Sequence record: PV245935.1
Length of the DNA: 64,000 nt
Reading direction: 5' to 3' (one strand)
DNA from: Escherichia phage kaset
Shown here one piece after another: positions 1 to 57,897 of this stretch. Both the position numbers and the translations under genes were made by a program. Every line of letters begins with the position of its first letter. Within the stretch, counting starts at the first letter, position 1. Under the pieces are notes generated by a model. The model was not told the origin of the DNA and did not search any database. It saw nothing but the letters and a program-made list of their open reading frames with translations.

Positions 1-1461
1 ATGAATAAAATATTAACACATAATTGGAAAGTCATGTACCAGTTGAATCCTGCTTTAAGAGAAGTCTGGAAGACGAAAGCGCGATACAAAGTGATATACG
101 GCGGTCGTGCATCTTCCAAATCGCATGATGCCGCTGGTTTTGCTATTTATTTGGCGGCAAACTTCAAATTAAAATTCCTTTGCGTTCGACAATTCCAGAA
201 CAAGATTTCTGAATCAGTATATACGCTACTAAAAGACAAAATAGAAATTTCTGATTTCAAAGATGAGTTTAACTTATTAAAGAACTCTATTGAACACAAA
301 AGAACAAAATCTGAATTCTTATTTTACGGTATCGCACGCAACGTTGACGAAATCAAATCAACAGAGGGCGTTGATGTTCTTTGGCTTGAGGAAGCGCATG
401 CACTGACTGAAGAGCAATGGGATATTATTGAGCCGACAATTCGTAAGGAAGGGTCCGAAATATGGATCATATTTAACCCTGATGAAGAGGCTGATTTCGT
501 CTACCAGAACTTTGTCATGCGACCGCCGAAGAATGCCATCGTTAAGAAGATTAACTGGCAGGACAATCCATTCTTGTCGCAAACAATGCTTGATGTTATC
601 GCTGGAATGTATGATCGTGACCCGAAAAAGGCAGAACACGTTTATGGCGGAGTACCGAAGACTGGCGGCGACAAGTCGGTAATCAACCGTGCATTTGTCA
701 AGGCCGCGCTAAACCTCCACAAACACCCTACGCTGGGATGGAGCTTGTCAGGGTCTAACCGTATAGGCTTTGACGTGGCGGACGACGGCGACGACTTAAA
801 CGCCACAGCATTTGTCACTGGCAACGTATTGCGCGGCATCAAGACATGGGAAGGTCTTGAAGATGAGTTGCTTAAGTCCGCAAGCGGAGTCTGGAAAGAT
901 GCATTGACATTCGGCGCATCAATTACCTATGACGCCATCGGTGTTGGTGCATTTGCTGGTTCAAAATTTGATGAGCTTAATGAGTATGCAATCCATGAAA
1001 ATCCAACATTCCCAAGAATCGAATTTAATGCGTTCAACGCGCAAGGTGCTGTTGATGATCCTGATGACGTCTTCCTTGAGTTACCACACGTTGAAATACT
1101 CAATAAAGACCATTTCGCAAACATAAAAGCGCAAAAATGGACTGAGATTGCCGAACGATTCAGGAAGACATATGAGTATGCGACAGGGCAGGCCGTATAT
1201 CCGACTGATGAGTTGATTTCCATCGACACGGACGGCATTCCAGAACTTGGTATTCCTGCTTGGACTGCGGAAGAGATTGAGACGTTTCTTTTTGAGATGT
1301 CAGCGCCGCGCAAAGACACGTCTGTTCTTGGTAAGTTCAAAGTTGAATCGAAAAAAGATATGGCAAAGCGTGGAGTCAAATCGCCTAACAAAGCGGACGC
1401 CGCAATTATGGCATTGATGAAACCAATTGTTGCAGCATCCGGCTTCTTCTCTAACCTTTAA
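1..1461 (+). CDS. terL: terminase large subunit (ATPase + nuclease)
   Basis: 486 aa ORF starting at window position 1; P-loop-like YGGRASSKS, Walker B-like LWLEEAH, acidic C-terminal nuclease-like half; heads the morphogenesis block. Confidence 0.8.
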   Translation: MNKILTHNWKVMYQLNPALREVWKTKARYKVIYGGRASSKSHDAAGFAIYLAANFKLKFLCVRQFQNKISESVYTLLKDKIEISDFKDEFNLLKNSIEHKRTKSEFLFYGIARNVDEIKSTEGVDVLWLEEAHALTEEQWDIIEPTIRKEGSEIWIIFNPDEEADFVYQNFVMRPPKNAIVKKINWQDNPFLSQTMLDVIAGMYDRDPKKAEHVYGGVPKTGGDKSVINRAFVKAALNLHKHPTLGWSLSGSNRIGFDVADDGDDLNATAFVTGNVLRGIKTWEGLEDELLKSASGVWKDALTFGASITYDAIGVGAFAGSKFDELNEYAIHENPTFPRIEFNAFNAQGAVDDPDDVFLELPHVEILNKDHFANIKAQKWTEIAERFRKTYEYATGQAVYPTDELISIDTDGIPELGIPAWTAEEIETFLFEMSAPRKDTSVLGKFKVESKKDMAKRGVKSPNKADAAIMALMKPIVAASGFFSNL

Positions 1462-5515: not shown

Positions 5516-6436
5516 ATGACGATACCAATCAGCACGTTTCCTCTATCTGGACAAACGCCAGTATTACCTGCTGTATATGCGAACGGTTTGGCGATTGTTT
5601 CAGAATTTACATCCGATAAAAATTTGATTGTTCCATTGAGTCCGCCATTGGCATCTGGATACAATTCAGTCGGACAATTCTTTATGATCGGTAATGATGG
5701 AGATTCTACCAGCAAACCGAATCTGACCCTTTCAGTCCCCAAAATGAACATAACAGACGTGCAGACTGGTTTGACTGCATCTACAATCACCATCGCTTTT
5801 GGAGAAGCAGTGATTATAGGCATGGAGTCTGGAGGGTCCAAGAATGCTGTCGCCGTTAAAGTAGTCAAATCCAGCGGCAACCAATACACATTACCAGCAG
5901 CAACGGCTTCTGTTCTTGGCGGAGTCAAAATAGGGAGTGGCATAAGCGTTGCAGGTGACGGTACAATTAGCGTGACTCAATACTCATTACCGATTGCATC
6001 AGCATCAACCTTGGGTGGCATAAAGGTAGGTACGACACTATCAATTGATGGTTCTGGAGTTCTCAATGCTGCTGCAAGCACTGTGCAGAACGCAAGCAAC
6101 AGCGTAAGCAATCCTCCGACAACTCTGGTGAATCTGGCAACCTTAAACCTGCCTGCAGGGAAATGGCTTGTGACAGCAAGTCAGTTGACTGTTGCGACAG
6201 AAGGAGTTCAAGCGAATACCGGAATTACAGTCAAACTGTCAACAAGTAATTCAGATATTACGGATGATGCATTTACGATGTCAGCTGGCATTCGGGCTGC
6301 AGGTCGTTTCGGCGGCAATATTCCAACAAAAATAATTACTCTTGCCGCGCCTGGCAACGTGTATCTAAACTATCAATGCACAGACGCATTGACATCTACC
6401 GTTTACGGACAGATCACCGCAATTAAGTTGAACTAA
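5516..6436 (+). CDS. hypothetical virion protein with internal Gly/Ser/Thr-rich repeats
   Basis: 306 aa; repeated segments ASVLGGVKIGSGISVAGDGTISV and ASTLGGIKVGTTLSIDGSGVL. Confidence 0.5.
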   Translation: MTIPISTFPLSGQTPVLPAVYANGLAIVSEFTSDKNLIVPLSPPLASGYNSVGQFFMIGNDGDSTSKPNLTLSVPKMNITDVQTGLTASTITIAFGEAVIIGMESGGSKNAVAVKVVKSSGNQYTLPAATASVLGGVKIGSGISVAGDGTISVTQYSLPIASASTLGGIKVGTTLSIDGSGVLNAAASTVQNASNSVSNPPTTLVNLATLNLPAGKWLVTASQLTVATEGVQANTGITVKLSTSNSDITDDAFTMSAGIRAAGRFGGNIPTKIITLAAPGNVYLNYQCTDALTSTVYGQITAIKLN

Positions 6437-6446
6437 AGAGGAAGTT

Positions 6447-6584
6447 ATGCAAAAGATTATTCAGTCACGTTACGTTAAAGTGCGAAATATTAATTGCAAC
6501 TCTTTGCTTTCTTGGAAATGGGCTGTTTACGACTCGATGCTGATTGGCGTTTTAGTTGCTGGAGTGCTTTTTAATATTCACTGA
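6447..6584 (+). CDS. small hypothetical protein (45 aa, hydrophobic C-terminus)
   Basis: ATG 6447 preceded by AGAGGAAG RBS; not in ORF track (under 60 aa); C-terminal MLIGVLVAGVLF hydrophobic stretch. Confidence 0.35.
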   Translation: MQKIIQSRYVKVRNINCNSLLSWKWAVYDSMLIGVLVAGVLFNIH

Positions 6585-6589
6585 ATCGC

Positions 6590-6960
6590 CTGGCAGTGGA
6601 TTGCCGCAGGATTTTACGCGTATAATGACGTATCATCCGTATCAAGTAAGTAGTTGTTTTCAAAAGAATCTTACGGATGATACGGATGATACGCGTTGCC
6701 GCGATACTTTATAGGAATTCAAATAAATTAATTTAAAATTATATATCTAATTTAATTTTATTTTTTTATAAACTCTTATATATGAAAAGTATCCGTATCA
6801 TCCGTATCATCCGTAGCACACCAGTGATAGCGCGGCTTATACACCGATACGGATAAAAATACGCCTCATTTTATCCGTATCATCCGTATCACACTAATTA
6901 AGGCGCGGCTATATCGGTTGTTATACATATTCAAACCATAATTATTGTTTGCCTAAGTTT
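6590..6960. repeat. noncoding region with 9-bp ATCATCCGT/ACGGATGAT repeats in both orientations plus CGTATAATGACGTA box (copy A)
   Basis: tandem copies at 6631-6644, 6672-6695 (inverted), 6791-6816, 6872-6890; a ~45 bp core is nearly identical to 58758-58800. Confidence 0.7.
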
Positions 6961-6977
6961 TTTTCATTAGATATAAT
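6949..6977 (+). promoter_or_regulatory. sigma70-like promoter upstream of protease/scaffold gene
   Basis: TTGCCT-N17-TATAAT, 24 bp upstream of ATG 7001. Confidence 0.4.
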
Positions 6978-7000: not shown

Positions 7001-8422
7001 ATGCGAATGCAAACGGCACGCGAAATTGACAAAAATGGATTCTTGACGATTGTGGGTTGTCCCATTTCGTCATTTGGCATTTTTGATTATTCTGCAGGTC
7101 AGGTTGGACTTGATGGTGATCCGAATCGCATCGTAAAAGTTTATCGCCCAGAGTCAGCGGTGAAAGACCCCGAAGCGATAGATTCATTCAAAAATATCCC
7201 TTTCATCGACAATCACGAAATGCTTTCTGGATTCGAAGGTGATGAGGATAACACGGCACCCGAAGAGTATGGCGTTGATGGAGTTCTAACTGGCAATGTT
7301 TATTATGACAAGCCATGGATGCGCGGCGACCTTAAAGTTTTTAGCCGTCGTCTGAAGAAAGCCATCGATTCTGGAAAGGTTGACTTGTCTTTGGGCTATG
7401 ACTGTGAATTCATCATACAGTCTGGAGAGTTTGACGGGCAGCCGTATGAAGTGGTACAGACAACTCTTCGCGGCAACCACATTGCTCTCGTGGACGTTGG
7501 TCGAGTACCAGGTGCACGGGTGCTGGATGGTCGTTGCTTTGACCATCTTTGTTTGACGACTGTAACACCATCCAACGAGGATTTAGATATGCCAAAACCG
7601 TTAAAAGGTAAAGCGCGTGATAATGCTGTTGAACAGCTGAAATCACTGATCCCTGCGCTCGAACAATTTCTGAATGAAGAGAGCACCGAAGCTGCTCATC
7701 AGGATGAAGTTGAAGTGAAAGCAGAAGAGAAGGATTCAACCGAAGAACGTGAAGAAGTGATGGTTGATCCAGAAGTCAAAGCAGAAGCTGAAGAGACTCC
7801 AGAAGGTGAAGAGAAGTTTGAAGTTGAAACTGAATCTCACGCTGGTGGCGAGCTTCCGCAACTGATCAGCCAAATCGAAGCACTTATTGCAAAACTGAAA
7901 GGTGGCGCGGTAGGTGATGAAGAAGAAGTTGAAGCCGAAGTCAAAGACGAAGAAGAAGTTGAAGTCAAGGCTGAAGATGTATCACCTTGCGACAAAGCTG
8001 AAGATGTGGTTAGCGGCCTGCAAAACAGCAACGTAAAGGGGGCTTCGGTCGAAAAAGATGACAAACCGACAAAAGCGGCGAAAGCGTCGCCAGGTCCAGC
8101 AAAAGGGGAACACTCAATGGCATCTGATTCAGCAGTTGCTGCTTTCTACGCTGATTCTGCTCGTAAGAATAGCCTCTACCAGCGCCTGTCTAAAGTTGTT
8201 GGTGCCTTTGATCATGCAACTATGGACTCCAAGTCCGTAGCGAAATATGGCGCTAAAAAGTTAGGCTTGAAGTGCGTTGATGGCGCTGAGTTTGACGTTG
8301 TGGATAACTATCTGCGCGGCGTTGAACACGGTCAAAAACAGCGTGTAGTCGCAAAACAAAAGGCCGCTGCGGATTCTGCAGCAACTGACGAAGCATTTGA
8401 AGCTTGGTTGAAAGGGGAATAA
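7001..8422 (+). CDS. prohead protease / scaffolding fusion protein
   Basis: 473 aa; globular N-terminal domain followed by highly acidic Glu/Val/Lys-rich coiled-coil region (EEVEAEVKDEEEVEVKAED) typical of scaffolds; lies before the capsid gene. Confidence 0.5.
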   Translation: MRMQTAREIDKNGFLTIVGCPISSFGIFDYSAGQVGLDGDPNRIVKVYRPESAVKDPEAIDSFKNIPFIDNHEMLSGFEGDEDNTAPEEYGVDGVLTGNVYYDKPWMRGDLKVFSRRLKKAIDSGKVDLSLGYDCEFIIQSGEFDGQPYEVVQTTLRGNHIALVDVGRVPGARVLDGRCFDHLCLTTVTPSNEDLDMPKPLKGKARDNAVEQLKSLIPALEQFLNEESTEAAHQDEVEVKAEEKDSTEEREEVMVDPEVKAEAEETPEGEEKFEVETESHAGGELPQLISQIEALIAKLKGGAVGDEEEVEAEVKDEEEVEVKAEDVSPCDKAEDVVSGLQNSNVKGASVEKDDKPTKAAKASPGPAKGEHSMASDSAVAAFYADSARKNSLYQRLSKVVGAFDHATMDSKSVAKYGAKKLGLKCVDGAEFDVVDNYLRGVEHGQKQRVVAKQKAAADSAATDEAFEAWLKGE

Positions 8423-12213: not shown

Positions 12214-12699
12214 ATGACAAAATCAAAAATGATAGAAAAACAGATTAAGGCACTTCAATCTATGAAGGGTCTTACTGTTGAGGCAGGATGGTTTGATTCT
12301 ACCAGATACCCTTCAGAAACTGGTGGAGAAGGCATGCTGGTGTCAGAAGTCGCGCGGCTTAACGAGTTTGGTCACATAGCCGTTTTGAACTTTGGACAAG
12401 GCCCAGTCAGGGTAGAAGTGCCACCCAGACCATTCATGAGATATGCCTATGAATTATTCGTTAGTGAGCGCAGTGAAATAGAGAATAAAATTGCTAAAAA
12501 GATTTTTTCCGGTAAAATAGACGCTAGACAGGCATTGGGTCAAATTGGGCTTGCGATGGAAGCAAAGATTGTCGAATCAATTAAAAACGGACCGTGGCAA
12601 CCAAACGCCAGATATACTGTACGTGTGAAGGGATTCGACAAGCCTTTGATTCACACTAGCCTCATGTGGCAATCTGTCAGCAGCCAAGTCATTAAATAA
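12214..12699 (+). CDS. hypothetical protein (possible virion morphogenesis / tail completion)
   Basis: internal ATG of ORF 12154-12699 right after upstream stop; position before putative sheath. Confidence 0.4.
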   Translation: MTKSKMIEKQIKALQSMKGLTVEAGWFDSTRYPSETGGEGMLVSEVARLNEFGHIAVLNFGQGPVRVEVPPRPFMRYAYELFVSERSEIENKIAKKIFSGKIDARQALGQIGLAMEAKIVESIKNGPWQPNARYTVRVKGFDKPLIHTSLMWQSVSSQVIK

Positions 12700-32589: not shown

Positions 32590-33147
32590 TTACTTTTTGC
32601 TTTTAGGCAAGGTTATTTTAGCTTCTTTATACTCAAAGACGCTAATATCTTCACTGACTGGATTACCCGCTTCCAGCTGTTCTTTTACGAATGACTTCAG
32701 TGTAGCAGAATGAACGCCTTGTTTCAACGTGGCTTCAATACCGTCTTCACGCAGCGCGGCAACAATCTCTTGCGCTTGCTCGATTTCTTCGCGACCGAAC
32801 TCAGCCGTGACGCTGGACTTGATCAAGCCGCCGTAACCGTTGTTGACAAGCCAATCGAATACTTTCAATTCATTTTCTTTCTTAATTGAAGCATTGACTT
32901 TTGACTCGACCTTGATTTTGGTCTTGTCTTCAAGCTTGATTTCGGACACGCCAAGCTCATCCATAACGCCAGGAAGCAGAACAGTTTTGATTTCACTGAT
33001 GCGCTGCTTTTGCATATCAGCTTCATCTTCAAGCTCTGTCAAAGCTTCTTGGCGTTCTGCCAATTCCGATACTAAGCGCGCAAGGCGCTCTTGGATGCTC
33101 TCAGGAGCGACCTGCGGCAAATCATCTTCCCAATTAATATTGCTCAT
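32590..33147 (-). CDS. hypothetical replication/recombination-associated protein
   Basis: 185 aa, coiled-coil N-terminus; start lies in copy 1 of a 52-bp tandem duplication. Confidence 0.45.
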   Translation of the reverse strand: MSNINWEDDLPQVAPESIQERLARLVSELAERQEALTELEDEADMQKQRISEIKTVLLPGVMDELGVSEIKLEDKTKIKVESKVNASIKKENELKVFDWLVNNGYGGLIKSSVTAEFGREEIEQAQEIVAALREDGIEATLKQGVHSATLKSFVKEQLEAGNPVSEDISVFEYKEAKITLPKSKK

Positions 33148-33240
33148 ATTTTACCTTCTTGCATTAGCCCTTCAACACGGGTCATTTGATATTGCTCATA
33201 TTTTACCTTCTTGCATTAGCCCTTCAACACGGGTCATTTG
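33137..33240. repeat. perfect tandem duplication, 2 x 52 bp
   Basis: 33137-33188 and 33189-33240 are identical (atattgctcatattttaccttcttgcattagcccttcaacacgggtcatttg). Confidence 0.85.
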
Positions 33241-33459
33241 ATAACGTTCAGGTTTCCAAGCCGCCAAAGCCTTCTCAGCGCCTTTTAAAGTTTTATATGC
33301 CTTGATGCCAGGCATAATGACGGTATTCACCCCAGCACCGTTGCCATAATCAAACTCTTTTACAACGCGGAACATGCCGTCAATTTCTTTGACCAAAAGA
33401 CGTTTGAACGCGATTGCGCCAGTAGCTTCATTTTTGTAACGTTCAAGGATGCGTACCAT
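33196..33459 (-). CDS. hypothetical protein
   Basis: 87 aa; stop lies in copy 2 of the 52-bp duplication. Confidence 0.45.
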   Translation of the reverse strand: MVRILERYKNEATGAIAFKRLLVKEIDGMFRVVKEFDYGNGAGVNTVIMPGIKAYKTLKGAEKALAAWKPERYQMTRVEGLMQEGKI

Positions 33460-46534: not shown

Positions 46535-47617
46535 ATGGCTAGTTTAAGAGAAGAAGCAAAAATAATCGAAGAGTTTTTGACGGAACTCCAAAGAGGCATT
46601 CCAGAAGATGAACGCGTCATGACTGTGTTTGCGCCTGAAGCAACGGTGCAGACCGACGAGCGCGGCAAAAAGATTAACAGCAGCTTCTGGCCTAAGCCTT
46701 GGAAGCTTGGCAAGCCGCTGATGCAACATCAGAACGGTTACGCCTGCATAAGTTCAATGCGCAAGTCTCCCAACCCAAAGACAGGCGAGATGCGATACTG
46801 GCGCACGGAATCGGCTTTCGGTCATGGCATGGCAATGATGGTCGACGACATCGGACACGGTAAAGGGTCAAAGGGCGATTTAGATTTGGAGTTCTTTTTC
46901 GAGCGTCTGAAGCCAACCGTTATCGTTGAGACTTCACCGAACAACCATCAGCTGTGGTACTTCTTTAAAGAACCGATTGACCATCTTATTCAGTTCAAAG
47001 CATTCCTTGGGTCTTTCGTAAACATGGTACTCAAGAAGGGCGGCGACAACACGATTAAAGACGTGACGCGCGTGGGCCGTGTTCCTGGGTGCATCAACAA
47101 TAAGCGTGTGACTCACGACGGCCCCTATAAATATGTCGATGAGAACGGCGACCCGTTCCGCTGCCGACTTGTTCATGCAGACTATTCTTTGCGCTACACA
47201 ATCGAAGAGATTTGCCAAGCATTCGGTTTCCACGTCGTTATGCCGCAAAAGCGTGAAATTCAAATCGACGTTGACGAATACAAATATGACGCTGTTTGGT
47301 ATAAGATAGCCCAGCAAATCCTTGCGCGCAATAAGATGGGCGAAGGGTCCGATGGCGATGTGGTTGAAAACATGTCAGGTAAATGCCGCATCATCTGTCC
47401 TTGGGGTGAAGAGCACACCAACGGCGACCCATACGGCGCTTATTTTCGCGGCCCAATCCCTGGCGCTGAACATGAATTCGTTTTCGGTTGCGCTCACGAC
47501 TGTCACCGGAAAGGGGAAGGCAAGAAAGGCTGGACCGCTTTTGTTGAAGCAGTAGTCATGCCTTATATTGAGAATCAACTTGATATGATAAATCGTCGCG
47601 CAGGTGGCATAAAATAG
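46535..47617 (+). CDS. primase-polymerase-like protein (AEP family) with C-terminal zinc-binding region
   Basis: 360 aa; MVDDIGHG (DxD-like), NHQLWYF (His motif), Cys/His cluster CRIICPWGEEH...CAHDCH. Confidence 0.5.
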   Translation: MASLREEAKIIEEFLTELQRGIPEDERVMTVFAPEATVQTDERGKKINSSFWPKPWKLGKPLMQHQNGYACISSMRKSPNPKTGEMRYWRTESAFGHGMAMMVDDIGHGKGSKGDLDLEFFFERLKPTVIVETSPNNHQLWYFFKEPIDHLIQFKAFLGSFVNMVLKKGGDNTIKDVTRVGRVPGCINNKRVTHDGPYKYVDENGDPFRCRLVHADYSLRYTIEEICQAFGFHVVMPQKREIQIDVDEYKYDAVWYKIAQQILARNKMGEGSDGDVVENMSGKCRIICPWGEEHTNGDPYGAYFRGPIPGAEHEFVFGCAHDCHRKGEGKKGWTAFVEAVVMPYIENQLDMINRRAGGIK

Positions 47618-48926: not shown

Positions 48927-50597
48927 ATGTCAATTGAACATGACAATCTTCCAGAGGATACAGGTGATGAATTTGGTGCAATCTTTGACGAAATTCAAGA
49001 TGCTGGTGTTTCAGAAGAAATGCAAGCGGCAGAGCAGCAAGGCACCAGAGCTAAAATAAGCCTTCAGCACAAGGCTGTTGAGAAAGATGCAGAGCGCATG
49101 GAATGCTACGGTGAAGAAGACTTGGTTGAAAGAGCACGTTTGCTCGCCTCACTTCAGGTAATCAAGTTCCCTCACTACAAACCGACGAAAGATGATTTTG
49201 TTCTTCAGGCGGACCGGACGAGTGACATGAACCGTTATGCGGTTTTCGACGCGTTGTTTGATAAGGGAAGCGGCATCGTCCCATTCCCTCACAAAGATAC
49301 TTTTCGTGGACGCTTAGTCGACCATCGCGGCGAAACATTCACCGACCGGACATTGGAAGTCACAGAGATAGTTGCCGCTGTCGACGCAGCAGGTCTGTCC
49401 AACCCAAACTCACGTCAGGTCGCTCAATCCTATAAGGAATGGGCCATGCGTTATCAGCGCGACGACCTGATGGACTTCTTCTACAAGAAGCTGCCTGAAT
49501 GGGACGGTACTGCGCGCATTGAAAAATACCTTATCGAGCTATTCCGACCGTTCGATACAGAGTTAAACCGACAAATCGGTGTGTATTTTTGGCTATCGCT
49601 CTATAACCGCCTGACCAATCCTGGCTGTCAAGCGCCAATCTCCATTGCGCTCATCGGCGGCCAGAACGCAGGGAAGAGTTATTTTAGTAAGCTGCTTTGC
49701 GAAGCTATTATGAACGACCGCCACGCAACACCGATTCCGTTGAACTTGGCCGCGCAAAACTTCAACCCGTTCTTGCGAGCTATTACGGGTCGCTCAATTA
49801 TCGCGAACGTTGGCGAGATGACAGGCTTTAAAAAGGCTGACATCGAAAACATGAAAGCATTCCTGACTAAGACGGAAGATGACCTGGACTTCAAATTTGA
49901 AGATACGCAGGTTAAACCACGCCAGTGGATTGCTATCATGGACGGCAACGAATACGCAGGCATGCAGCGTGACGATACGGGCAACCGTCGTGTGTATCCT
50001 ATCTTTGTTGGCCAACTCGCCGACAAGGACGGGCAACCGAACTGGTCTAAAGACTTCCAAGCTGACCTTTCCACTTTGAAAGAAGACGTTTGGCAGCTGA
50101 TGGCTGAGTGCGCTGCGTGGATGGAGAAGCACGGCGAAGCAGGTTACAACGCCTTTGTTGGTGAAACATCTCGTATGCTTACTGAGTTCAGTAAGAACGA
50201 AATGGAACGTGCGCGCGGCGTTATCCGTGATGAGATGGTCGACAACGACCTTGTTGAAGTCATCATCACCGCGCCTTATGACCGACATCACAGCGGACGC
50301 TGGCACATCACCAGTGGGGCAATCGCTATGGGATTCAGAGCTAAGTGCGGCAAGTCGCCTTTCTCACGTACCCTTGCGCCGCACATGTCGAAGCTTGGAT
50401 TTGAGCCTGCAACCTATCGCAACCAGCGTGGCTACTTTACGCCGCTGATTAAGAATGAAGCAGGGGAATACATTTCTGACTTGATGACCATCTTAGCGTA
50501 TCTTATTCGCGACGAGTCTGACCCTGAAGATATTGAATTCTTGAAGAAGGTTATTGAACGCAAACGTTCTTTAGGAAGAGATAAGGATGAATTCTGA
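48927..50597 (+). CDS. VirE/D5-like primase-associated P-loop NTPase (putative replicative helicase)
   Basis: 556 aa; Walker A IALIGGQNAGKSY; follows primase gene. Confidence 0.55.
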   Translation: MSIEHDNLPEDTGDEFGAIFDEIQDAGVSEEMQAAEQQGTRAKISLQHKAVEKDAERMECYGEEDLVERARLLASLQVIKFPHYKPTKDDFVLQADRTSDMNRYAVFDALFDKGSGIVPFPHKDTFRGRLVDHRGETFTDRTLEVTEIVAAVDAAGLSNPNSRQVAQSYKEWAMRYQRDDLMDFFYKKLPEWDGTARIEKYLIELFRPFDTELNRQIGVYFWLSLYNRLTNPGCQAPISIALIGGQNAGKSYFSKLLCEAIMNDRHATPIPLNLAAQNFNPFLRAITGRSIIANVGEMTGFKKADIENMKAFLTKTEDDLDFKFEDTQVKPRQWIAIMDGNEYAGMQRDDTGNRRVYPIFVGQLADKDGQPNWSKDFQADLSTLKEDVWQLMAECAAWMEKHGEAGYNAFVGETSRMLTEFSKNEMERARGVIRDEMVDNDLVEVIITAPYDRHHSGRWHITSGAIAMGFRAKCGKSPFSRTLAPHMSKLGFEPATYRNQRGYFTPLIKNEAGEYISDLMTILAYLIRDESDPEDIEFLKKVIERKRSLGRDKDEF

Positions 50598-53254: not shown

Positions 53255-53259
53255 ATATC

Positions 53260-53292
53260 AAAAAGGTGAGCTAAATGCTTGCCTTTTCTTTT
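53260..53292 (+). terminator. hairpin + T-tract (copy 1 of repeated terminator-promoter cassette)
   Basis: AAAAAGGTGAGCtaaatGCTTGCCTTTT then CTTTTAT; same element at 54522-54553. Confidence 0.5.
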
Positions 53293-54518: not shown

Positions 54519-54521
54519 TTC

Positions 54522-54553
54522 AAAAAGGTGAGCTAAATGCTTGCCTTTTTATT
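54522..54553 (+). terminator. hairpin + T-tract (copy 2 of repeated terminator-promoter cassette)
   Basis: CAAAAAGGTGAGCtaaatGCTTGCCTTTTTATTT; followed by TATACT and AAGGAG RBS. Confidence 0.5.
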
Positions 54554-54596
54554 TGCCTGTATTATACTTAGTTCATCAAGCAAAGGAGAATTGATT

Positions 54597-57245: not shown

Positions 57246-57897
57246 TGTTGATTATTGCACGCAGCACGCTTGTACATGCGAAGTTGTAAAGGATGATGAA
57301 GGCGGCTACGTTGAATATGAGGACTATGCCGCGCTGGAAGCGAAATATAGTTCTCTTACGTACATTGACAGCGAACCGTTTGCATACATCATTCAGGACA
57401 AGTATGAAAGGGAGAAAGGATTAGATGGTCATCTCAGTCGCAGTCATGTATCCAAATATGTTAGCCAGGAAGACATCAACGAGCATGAAATAACTTGCAT
57501 CCCGCTCTATCGCCAAGCACAGTTGGCGATAGCAATAAAACCGTTGGCAAAAACCGATGATGAGGACTACGCCGCGCTGGAAGCGAAATATGGTGAAGCG
57601 CAACGCGAGTTGGTTGCATTACGCTCACAGGTCCGTGATGCGTCGGCGCTCGTTAAGCAGTTGCACGACGTTGTTGCTACTATAGGCGTGGATGTTGATG
57701 CTTGCGAAAAGCAGGAAGAAGCGTGGACCGCGTGGTTTGGTGGAGAGAATCCGGTGCCTGGGAAGATGGTTGTGTTTGAGTTGTTAAACGGTTACAAATC
57801 AAAAGAGGCTGTGCCTTCGGATAATTTGAACTGGGGTGCAGTGGCAAGCCCTTTTGGCGAAGACATTGTTGCTTATCGGGTCGTTAAGGAGGGGTGA
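57229..57897 (+). CDS. hypothetical protein with internal repeat and W-x-W-GG-NPVPGK C-terminal module
   Basis: 222 aa; EDYAALEAKY occurs twice; C-terminal WTAWFGGENPVPGKMV. Confidence 0.45.
   Translation: MIQRYDVDYCTQHACTCEVVKDDEGGYVEYEDYAALEAKYSSLTYIDSEPFAYIIQDKYEREKGLDGHLSRSHVSKYVSQEDINEHEITCIPLYRQAQLAIAIKPLAKTDDEDYAALEAKYGEAQRELVALRSQVRDASALVKQLHDVVATIGVDVDACEKQEEAWTAWFGGENPVPGKMVVFELLNGYKSKEAVPSDNLNWGAVASPFGEDIVAYRVVKEG

Follow-up and report, generated by a model that had tools for sequence, protein, structure and literature searches.

A duplicated, mirror-symmetric repeat module in a Wifcevirus genome: a candidate pair of replication origins, one of which encloses the left end of the terminal repeat

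Origins in which short repeats surround an AT-rich centre have been described for SaPI (Staphylococcus aureus pathogenicity island) elements, where the AT-rich middle is flanked on both sides by two or more iterons in opposed orientation and the whole lies directly downstream of rep (PMC9371898). The iterons are short and are bound by the C-terminal winged helix of Rep, which loads itself without a loader, and a structure of SaPI1 Rep1 bound to DNA is available (PDB 7PDS; PMC9371898). [quoted passage not shown] PB1-like phages (Pbunavirus, Wifcevirus and relatives) are in wide use in phage therapy and are now being rebuilt synthetically. In the literature on these phages, neither a defined replication origin nor a description of the module reported here was found, and the one published origin proposal rests on GC skew (PMC12390725).

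The DNA considered here, termed the window, is a stretch of 64,000 nucleotides from a Wifcevirus, an E. coli myovirus that is distant kin of Pseudomonas phage PB1. It is collinear with records that open at the large-terminase gene and corresponds to the first 64 kb of a unit of approximately 67.5-68.3 kb. Two copies of a repeat-bearing module, A and B, were studied (Table 1). The DNA around both matches 28 Escherichia/Shigella Wifcevirus phages, including WFH, WFC, ECML-117, FEC19, Mansfield and Bas98-101, at identities of 94-99.5% for the surroundings of copy A and 85-97% for those of copy B, and the farther matches are to Pbunavirus (PB1-like) phages. Since the unit is longer than the window, the two cores lie approximately 15.5-16.2 kb apart across the junction, and the spacing of about 12 kb given in an earlier note made from the sequence is too short. 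That note placed copy A between a virion-protein gene and the scaffold gene; the right neighbour is indeed the head protease/scaffold gene, but the left one is a 45-aa open reading frame that follows a head-fibre-like gene. To the left of copy B is the last gene of a long plus-strand operon. On its right, approximately 120 bp from the end of the module, starts terS, the homologue of which carries a TerS annotation in the Mansfield and other records, and which stands to the right of copy B in all lineages that were examined; copy A is near no terminase gene.

All the sequences quoted in the earlier note are present in the window. The 9-mer ACGGATGAT has ten exact matches in the window against 0.55 expected, a count reached in none of 100 shuffles, and nine of the ten fall inside 6632-6887 or 58761-58946; apart from a stray match at 6260, the 9-mer is thus restricted to the two loci. 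The TATAAT box GCGTATAATGACGTA occurs exactly twice in the window (6618-6632 and 58673-58687), as does the 28-nt sequence TCTTACGGATGATACGGATGATACGCGT (at 6669 and 58757), and alignment of the two regions widens the latter match to a 66-nt repeat of 85% identity (6668-6733 versus 58756-58821). The core of about 45 bp that had been reported as shared is therefore real, although its exact span is 6669-6713 in copy A and 58757-58801 in copy B, where the preceding TATAAT box begins at 58673. When TACG/CGTA is taken as the oriented core of each unit, which is how unit order was read, both regions reach 14 such cores per 300 bp, compared with a genome mean of approximately 1.7 per 300 bp, and they are the two top-scoring intervals for this density. 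No third cluster lies outside the window, as judged from positions 55-67.5 kb of the relative RCIP0363. The exact double repeat was found by an IMG/VR search in Wifcevirus genomes only and so is genus-specific.

The description of both elements as non-coding also holds. Each region is interrupted in all reading frames by 6-14 stops, with no open stretch longer than 55 aa, and a coding function was rejected because all frames are broken and the small annotated ORFs vary from record to record. A scan of the whole window against Rfam gave zero matches, which makes a known RNA unlikely.

Both copies are built to the same plan. From the left, a minus-oriented GCGGC box is followed by at least three minus units, three plus units and a GCCGC box; then come the AT core, two or three minus units, a plus GCGGC box and two or three plus units, and further plus GCGGC boxes close each module on the right. 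The result is a non-coding, mirror-symmetric module of 330-400 bp in which tandem 9-bp repeats run in opposite directions on either side of an AT core of 87-91 bp, and GCGGC boxes lie outside the 9-bp repeats, in minus orientation on the left and in plus orientation on the right. [quoted passage not shown] The cores of copies A and B rank first and second in the window for AT content, whether measured over 60, 80 or 100 bp, and they hold the same ranks for nearest-neighbour duplex instability. Over 80 bp, the free energy is -75.9 kcal/mol for the core of copy A and -81.1 kcal/mol for that of copy B, against a window mean of -110.6 (sd 6.9), and the two cores lie 5.0 and 4.3 sd from this mean, respectively.

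Table 1. Coordinates of the two modules, their parts and associated features in the window
Feature	Position	Strand	Remarks
Left neighbour of copy A	6447-6584		45-aa ORF behind head-fibre-like gene; terminator-like hairpin after ORF
Copy A (proposed oriA)	6598..6915	.	Entire mirror-symmetric module, from hairpin of ORF 6447-6584 to protease/scaffold promoter
GCGGC box GGATTGCCGCAGG, left outer edge of copy A	6598..6610	-	
Three repeat units, left of copy A	6618..6643	-	Spacing 10 and 9 bp; first is the degenerate "TATAAT box" unit
Three tandem 9-bp units TCTTACGGATGATACGGATGATACGCG, copy A	6669..6695	+	
Inner GCCGC box and TATAGG-type edge box TTGCCGCGATACTTTATAGG, copy A	6696..6715	-	
AT-rich core of copy A	6704..6790	.	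90% A+T; proposed DNA-unwinding element
Three tandem 9-bp units, copy A	6791..6816	-	Opposed to 6669-6695 across AT core
Right flank of copy A	6829..6915	+	GCGGC boxes 6829-6843 and 6901-6915
Right-flank units of copy A	6846-6864; 6873-6890	+; -	Two plus units; two minus units
Promoter into protease/scaffold gene	6949..6977	+	Sigma-70-like, TTGCCT-17-TATAAT; outside repeat module
Right neighbour of copy A	7001-8422		Head protease/scaffold gene
RepB-type (archaeo-eukaryotic-like) primase	46535..47617	+	Candidate priming enzyme; Pfam PF16793; 65% identical to PB1 homologue
VapE-like SF3 helicase	48927..50597	+	Candidate initiator; C-terminal winged-helix region (aa 436-505); Pfam PF05272
Copy B (proposed oriB and packaging start)	58609..59012	.	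Module from last gene of plus-strand operon to terS
GCGGC box GGATTGCCGCTTG, left outer edge of copy B	58609..58621	-	
Repeat units, left of copy B	58657..58706	-	Include TATAAT box 58673-58687
45-bp core of copy B	58757..58801	+	Three tandem 9-bp units and inner GCCGC box; common to copy A
AT-rich core of copy B	58802..58892	.	84% A+T
Left boundary of direct terminal repeat	58827..58828	.	Left physical end of virion DNA; by homology to WFH, WFC and Mansfield
Direct terminal repeat	58828..62497	.	~3670 bp; inferred from homology to WFH, WFC and Mansfield
Right flank of copy B	58890..58960	.	Two minus units 58890-58906; three plus units 58935-58960
Box AAAGACTTGCGGCAATA, right flank of copy B	58921-58938		Deeply conserved; PB1 equivalent AAAGTCTTGCGGCAGTA
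Two extra GCGGC boxes between copy B module and terS	58973..59012	+	
terS, small terminase subunit gene	59134..59661	+	phmmer E=9.8e-33 to PDB 7UXE (E217 TerS)

The earlier note had also called for a comparison with related phages, and the module proved to be conserved in Wifcevirus, PB1, metagenomic lineages and the Serratia phage MTx. Across Wifcevirus, copy A is 95-99% conserved, and Bas101 lacks exactly one 9-bp unit at 6669..6695. Copy B to the left of 58827 is strongly divergent and partly non-homologous between Wifcevirus subgroups, despite which repeat units survive there (TACGGATGATACGGAT, ACGTCATGATACG, TATCCGTA). In 11 Wifcevirus genomes, the sequence that spans the terminus, which falls between AATTAACTCC and ATTTTGAA, is itself invariant, and copy B is almost unchanged from there rightwards. 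Beyond the genus, PB1 and two metagenomic lineages have the module at both syntenic sites, and MTx and a third metagenomic lineage show it at the copy-B site alone; the metagenomic relatives were located via their helicase and protease proteins. In PB1, the syntenic non-coding gaps measure 551 bp, upstream of the head protease gene, and approximately 920 bp, where the gap separates the helicase gene from that of gp79. Both gaps hold the tandem 9-bp repeat of PB1, GTAATTTGG (GGTAATTTGGTAATTTGG), an AT-rich stretch and the box AAAG(T/C)CT(T/C)GCGGCA(G/C)TA, of which AAAGACTTGCGGCAATA is the version in the window. The lineage L024/L027 (75% helicase identity) has ATGATACGT and ACGGATGAT at both sites and keeps AATTAACTCCATTTTGAA in copy B; L025/L028 (56%) has TATCCGCAAGA at both sites, with the unit orientations ordered as in the window; at the copy-B site, L026 (50%) has CAGATAGA and MTx has CGAAAA.

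The tandem repeat sequence therefore changes between lineages, but matches at both sites inside each two-site lineage. The GCGGC boxes behave differently: in nine elements from five lineages, GCCGC stands to the left of the AT centre and GCGGC to its right (20:1 versus 0:24; Fisher p=6.6e-12, a value that overstates independence, as the elements are homologous). From these comparisons, two repeat classes are apparent, one universal and strand-polarised, and the other lineage-specific and evolving in concert at loci approximately 16 kb apart. Such concerted change is the mark that a trans-acting, sequence-specific protein with targets at both loci would leave.

Among approximately 35 neighbouring and early proteins scanned, only a helicase and a primase were informative; PHROGs and Pfam searches of this set showed no regulator, ParB or classical initiator, and partition genes of the ParA/ParB type, which a partition-type site would have as neighbours, did not appear in it. 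Pfam scans detected no DnaB-type helicase, and the other replication proteins that they recovered are SNF2-type and Dda-like helicases. The only significant solved relative of the VapE-like helicase by sequence is SaPI1 Rep1 (PDB 7PDS, E=4e-11). Its AlphaFold model (mean pLDDT 85) matches 7PDS with E=7e-17 over approximately 480 columns, with other SF3 helicases far behind, and on this model the helicase is a full-length structural homologue of SaPI Rep1. Residues 436-505 are predicted to adopt a winged-helix topology (helix-strand-helix-helix-hairpin) and form the least conserved globular part of the protein, with a mean identity of 26% versus 59% for the ATPase. Matching of a repeat class to its protein by co-variation was attempted and abandoned: the helicase winged helix and TerS both diverge with phylogeny, and a comparison in which every candidate does so has no discriminating power.

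Taken together, these data are best accounted for by a pair of replication origins arranged like oriL/oriR of SPP1, with copy B doubling as the packaging start, and the probability of this interpretation is put at roughly one in two. Origin-type iterons, one of the functions raised in the earlier note, thus remain the best-supported reading, on the grounds of repeat layout, AT cores and Rep1-like helicase. It accounts for both copies, their symmetry, the instability of the cores, the concerted repeats and the presence of a Rep1-like initiator. In the proposed mechanism, the Rep-like helicase would use its winged-helix domain to bind one or the other repeat class, melt the AT core and load itself on both sides. 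The primase would then begin synthesis on the displaced strands, which are the GCGGC-bearing strands: on each side, the boxes lie on the strand that an outward-moving 3'-to-5' helicase would displace and may serve as sites of the first primer. By analogy with SaPI, the universal, short and opposed GCGGC boxes would fit the description of helicase sites; the variable 9-mers fit a variable winged helix, but a ring-shaped TerS would suit them too. With approximately 16 kb between them, the two origins may follow the SPP1 scheme, in which one would fire early and the other would serve either as a bound barrier or as a second start, and in Wifcevirus and MTx oriB would also be where terminase makes the left end, which would unite replication and packaging signals in one module. 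Other observations run against an origin function. In the window, oriB lies 8 kb beyond the end of the helicase gene, at 50597, rather than adjacent to its rep-like gene, and GC and cumulative skew of the window carry no origin signal, the skew tracking gene orientation.

The resemblance to the SaPI origin extends to opposed short repeats on both sides of an AT-rich centre, to an SF3 helicase as candidate initiator, with a winged helix in its C-terminal part and the primase on a separate protein, and, in PB1 and MTx, to a module directly downstream of the helicase gene (PDB 7PDS, 7OLA; PMC9371898). In contrast to SaPI, which has one copy, the phage has two per genome, and it has two repeat classes, lineage-specific 9-mers and universal GCGGC boxes; moreover, its module is 8 kb from the helicase gene, its primase is RepB-type and one copy holds the genome terminus. 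With SPP1 oriL/oriR, the phage shares two loci of the same organisation, approximately 16 kb apart here versus approximately 13 kb in SPP1. The late-segment origin of SPP1 presumably lies between the Mu-F-like gene 7 and the scaffold gene, which is the position of copy A here. However, SPP1 relies on gp38 as initiator, gp39 as loader and a DnaB-type helicase, whereas the phage candidates are a self-loading SF3 helicase and a RepB-type primase, and in SPP1 oriL is located inside gene 38 and pac is separate from both origins.

Two further systems are instructive. Phage T7 has an AT-rich, promoter-associated primary origin, as well as phiOL and phiOR beside its terminal repeat, and these latter elements have been linked to concatemer processing. 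AT-rich elements similarly occur here at an internal position (approximately 22% from the left end, compared with 15% for the T7 origin) and beside the terminal repeat. Unlike what is proposed for the phage modules, the T7 elements depend on T7 RNA polymerase promoters rather than on initiator-bound repeats, and the T7 terminal repeat is 160 bp versus 3.7 kb here; the PB1-like group is not known to have a phage RNA polymerase. In the satellite phage P4, ori and crr are several kb apart and are both bound by the C-terminal winged helix of the alpha primase-helicase. The presence of two separate repeat-bearing loci is common to P4 and the phage, but the P4 repeats are octamers, crr is an enhancer and not a second complete origin, and a single fused protein provides both primase and helicase. 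The kind of element is therefore already known, namely an iteron and unwinding-element origin with a Rep-like initiator and dual origins. The unusual feature is the terminal-repeat boundary inside one module, which opens the link between replication start and genome end to experiment. For PB1-like phages, the analysis offers two precise candidate origins and a candidate initiator, together with a rule for finding them in relatives: large non-coding gaps upstream of the head protease gene and of terS, each with an AT core surrounded by polarised GCGGC boxes and by tandem repeats particular to the lineage.

The position of the genome end follows from several deposited records. WFH and WFC were deposited with a 3.7-kb terminal repeat (PMC6563267); the first base of either record corresponds to 58828, and 62497 is where the repeat ends. 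For Mansfield, the record was made to begin at the boundary that PhageTerm gave for a repeat of 3,673 bp (PMC6753283); the last base of this record is the equivalent of 58827, and terS at 358-831 puts its start at 58828. These record boundaries place the left physical end inside the AT core of copy B, 26 bp past the 45-bp core. In MTx, a distant relative with a PhageTerm-predicted repeat of 3,566 bp, the record starts at the equivalent place: before the start are the helicase gene, a terminator, GCCGC boxes, CGAAAA repeats and a TATAAGG box, and past it are AT-rich DNA, four GCGGC boxes, a promoter and terS. Among the members with terminal repeats, the cut or start site is 21-26 bp into the oriB AT core, right after the left repeat array.

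This location raises the question of whether both modules are instead terminase-recognition elements, with copy B as the packaging start, TerS-binding repeats around the cut site, and copy A as a second, uncut TerS-binding locus, for instance a synapsis partner. Models for such a layout of copy B exist in lambda (cosN-cosB-Nu1), P1 (pac) and SPP1 (pacL-pacC-pacR), and in T4 two pac-like sequences have been proposed as synapsis partners. A physical end of virion DNA inside the element and an adjoining small-terminase gene, both typical of cos/pac-type sites, are found at copy B only, the end by homology to WFH, WFC and Mansfield. As in the lambda, P1 and SPP1 sites, the genome end of copy B lies between short repeats, a few hundred bp upstream of the small-terminase gene, and packaging would proceed towards that gene. 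Given the terS neighbour and the genome end, a packaging role explains copy B just as well as an origin does. The three record sets, the equivalent MTx start and the unfailing presence of terS on the right all favour it, and the 9-bp tandem spacing would, by inference, suit adjacent subunits of a decameric TerS ring. Copy A is the difficulty, since it has the full grammar, including the AT core, and no end has been reported there: the Mansfield PhageTerm analysis and the WFH and WFC records give only two repeat boundaries, of which the right one (62497) is without these repeats. Moreover, the pair is conserved in Pbunaviruses, which package by a headful mechanism and have no fixed ends (PMC12390725, PMC12345254), and in vitro the TerS of E217 did not bind DNA to any appreciable extent (PMC9611059). 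Two-sided mirror symmetry and strand-polarised boxes are also foreign to cosB-type sites, and, in contrast to the lambda, P1 and SPP1 sites, there is a full second copy without a known end, the layout is symmetric about the core and the ends are direct terminal repeats rather than cohesive. Terminase recognition therefore explains copy B very well and leaves copy A, and the pair in headful phages, unexplained; as an account of both modules, it is considered unlikely.

If the origin reading is retained, the left end in Wifcevirus and MTx could conceivably arise at, or by the action of, an active replication origin, although this is a speculative extension and rather doubtful. Melting of oriB, or rightward synthesis from it, would duplicate the 3.7-kb terminal repeat on concatemers, and would present a structure at which terminase, encoded directly downstream, could begin packaging. 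If true, an initiator-bound origin would be tied directly and mechanistically to the way in which long direct terminal repeats form, which is so far not well understood.

Control of transcription is a quite improbable function for the modules, in which a phage regulator would bind the repeats as operators or enhancer-like sites and so control the promoters of the protease/scaffold operon (copy A) and of terS (copy B), with the conserved TATATAGG-type boxes at both edges of the AT cores as promoter elements. Strong sigma-70-like promoters do lie 60-150 bp to the right of each module (6949-6977 and 59107-59153), across lineages the AT core is bordered by conserved boxes, TATA(T/A)AGG on the left and its inverse on the right, and both downstream genes serve head assembly or packaging. 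The TATAAT box, however, which the earlier note had suggested might mark transcription start regions, cannot be sustained as a promoter -10 element: promoter scans found no -35 partner at 16-18 bp, and at its position copy B of the WFC subgroup reads GCGTATCATGG, an ordinary repeat unit. It is accordingly interpreted as a degenerate repeat unit and not a conserved promoter, and it stands in register with its neighbours, at spacings of 10 and 9 bp. In addition, other late operons, such as that of the portal gene at 2280, are without the repeats, Pfam and PHROGs reveal no DNA-binding regulator among the neighbouring genes, and a mirror-symmetric array of 330-400 bp far exceeds the size of an operator and fits origin architecture. 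Regulation thus accounts for the promoters close by, but leaves the modules' size, symmetry and composition without an explanation.

Finally, it is very improbable that the repeats are sites for host proteins, such as weak DnaA boxes through which the phage borrows host initiation factors: the units are 9 bp long, the best of them in the window (TTATCCGTA, at 58897-58905 and 6871-6879) are two mismatches from the DnaA box TTATCCACA and the L025 unit TTATCCGCA is, by eye, one mismatch from it, but the window contains no cluster of 9-mers matching TTATCCACA, and the repeats of PB1 (GTAATTTGG), L026 (CAGATAGA) and MTx (CGAAAA) are unlike DnaA boxes. DnaA boxes are conserved across Proteobacteria; the lineage-specific repeats of these phages point rather to a phage-encoded specificity factor.

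Several public assemblies break within copy A or copy B, the paired modules of repeats and an AT-rich core that are proposed as origins. The record of phage ECO71P1 starts at the equivalent of window position 58893, and the IMG/VR contig L010 ends where the copy A core begins; assembly has probably been disturbed by the core that is common to both modules. In the metagenomic relative L025, from the lineage whose helicase is 56% identical, a 1-kb gap lies ahead of its copy B and at 12440-12680 holds an uncalled open stretch starting near AAATGCCGACCG, and this gap may contain a small unannotated gene besides the module.

A single exact copy of the 9-mer repeat unit ACGGATGAT is located at 6260-6268, within a head-fibre-like gene and ~370 bp to the left of copy A, which may be an outlying repeat unit or a chance occurrence. 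The stretch at 2138-2252 ranks third in AT-richness across the window (80-83% A+T) and is situated between divergent genes, upstream of the portal gene. This stretch carries none of the copy A/B repeats and probably serves as a conventional promoter region for the divergent genes.

The small-terminase gene (59134-59661), viewed against window 1-1461, lies within the direct terminal repeat, and virion DNA thus carries two copies of this gene. Further to the right in the terminal repeat, a small gene (61305-61607) is bracketed by one inverted and one direct repeat pair (Table), which resemble promoter or terminator modules that have been duplicated. The terminal repeat has its right boundary, at 62497, inside a non-coding stretch of ~700 bp (62005-62700) with its own set of repeats, unlike those of copies A and B, and the repeats around the boundary may be right-end processing signals.

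Table. Repeated elements outside the paired modules
Element	Copies or identity	Position	Location
Inverted repeat, 33 nt	88%	61159-61191 / 61605-61637	Inside terminal repeat
Direct repeat, 27 nt	89%	61244-61270 / 61642-61668	Inside terminal repeat
(G/C)(C/G)AATCATT	x3	62368-62424	Right-boundary non-coding stretch
TGTAACG	x2	62431-62452	Right-boundary non-coding stretch
AAATTTGCAGTACAC	x2	62520, 62618	Right-boundary non-coding stretch, just beyond terminal repeat
Tandem duplication, 52 nt	96%, perfect register	33131-33234	
Direct repeat, 35 nt	94%	53258-53292 / 54520-54554	Small early gene block
Direct repeat, 35 nt	94%	57317-57351 / 57560-57594	Small early gene block, within coding sequence

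The tandem duplication straddles the boundary between two genes on the minus strand, at 32590-33147 and 33196-33459, and appears to copy a gene start or ribosome-binding region. Of the two 35-nt pairs, the leftward one resembles repeated units of a terminator or ribosome-binding site.
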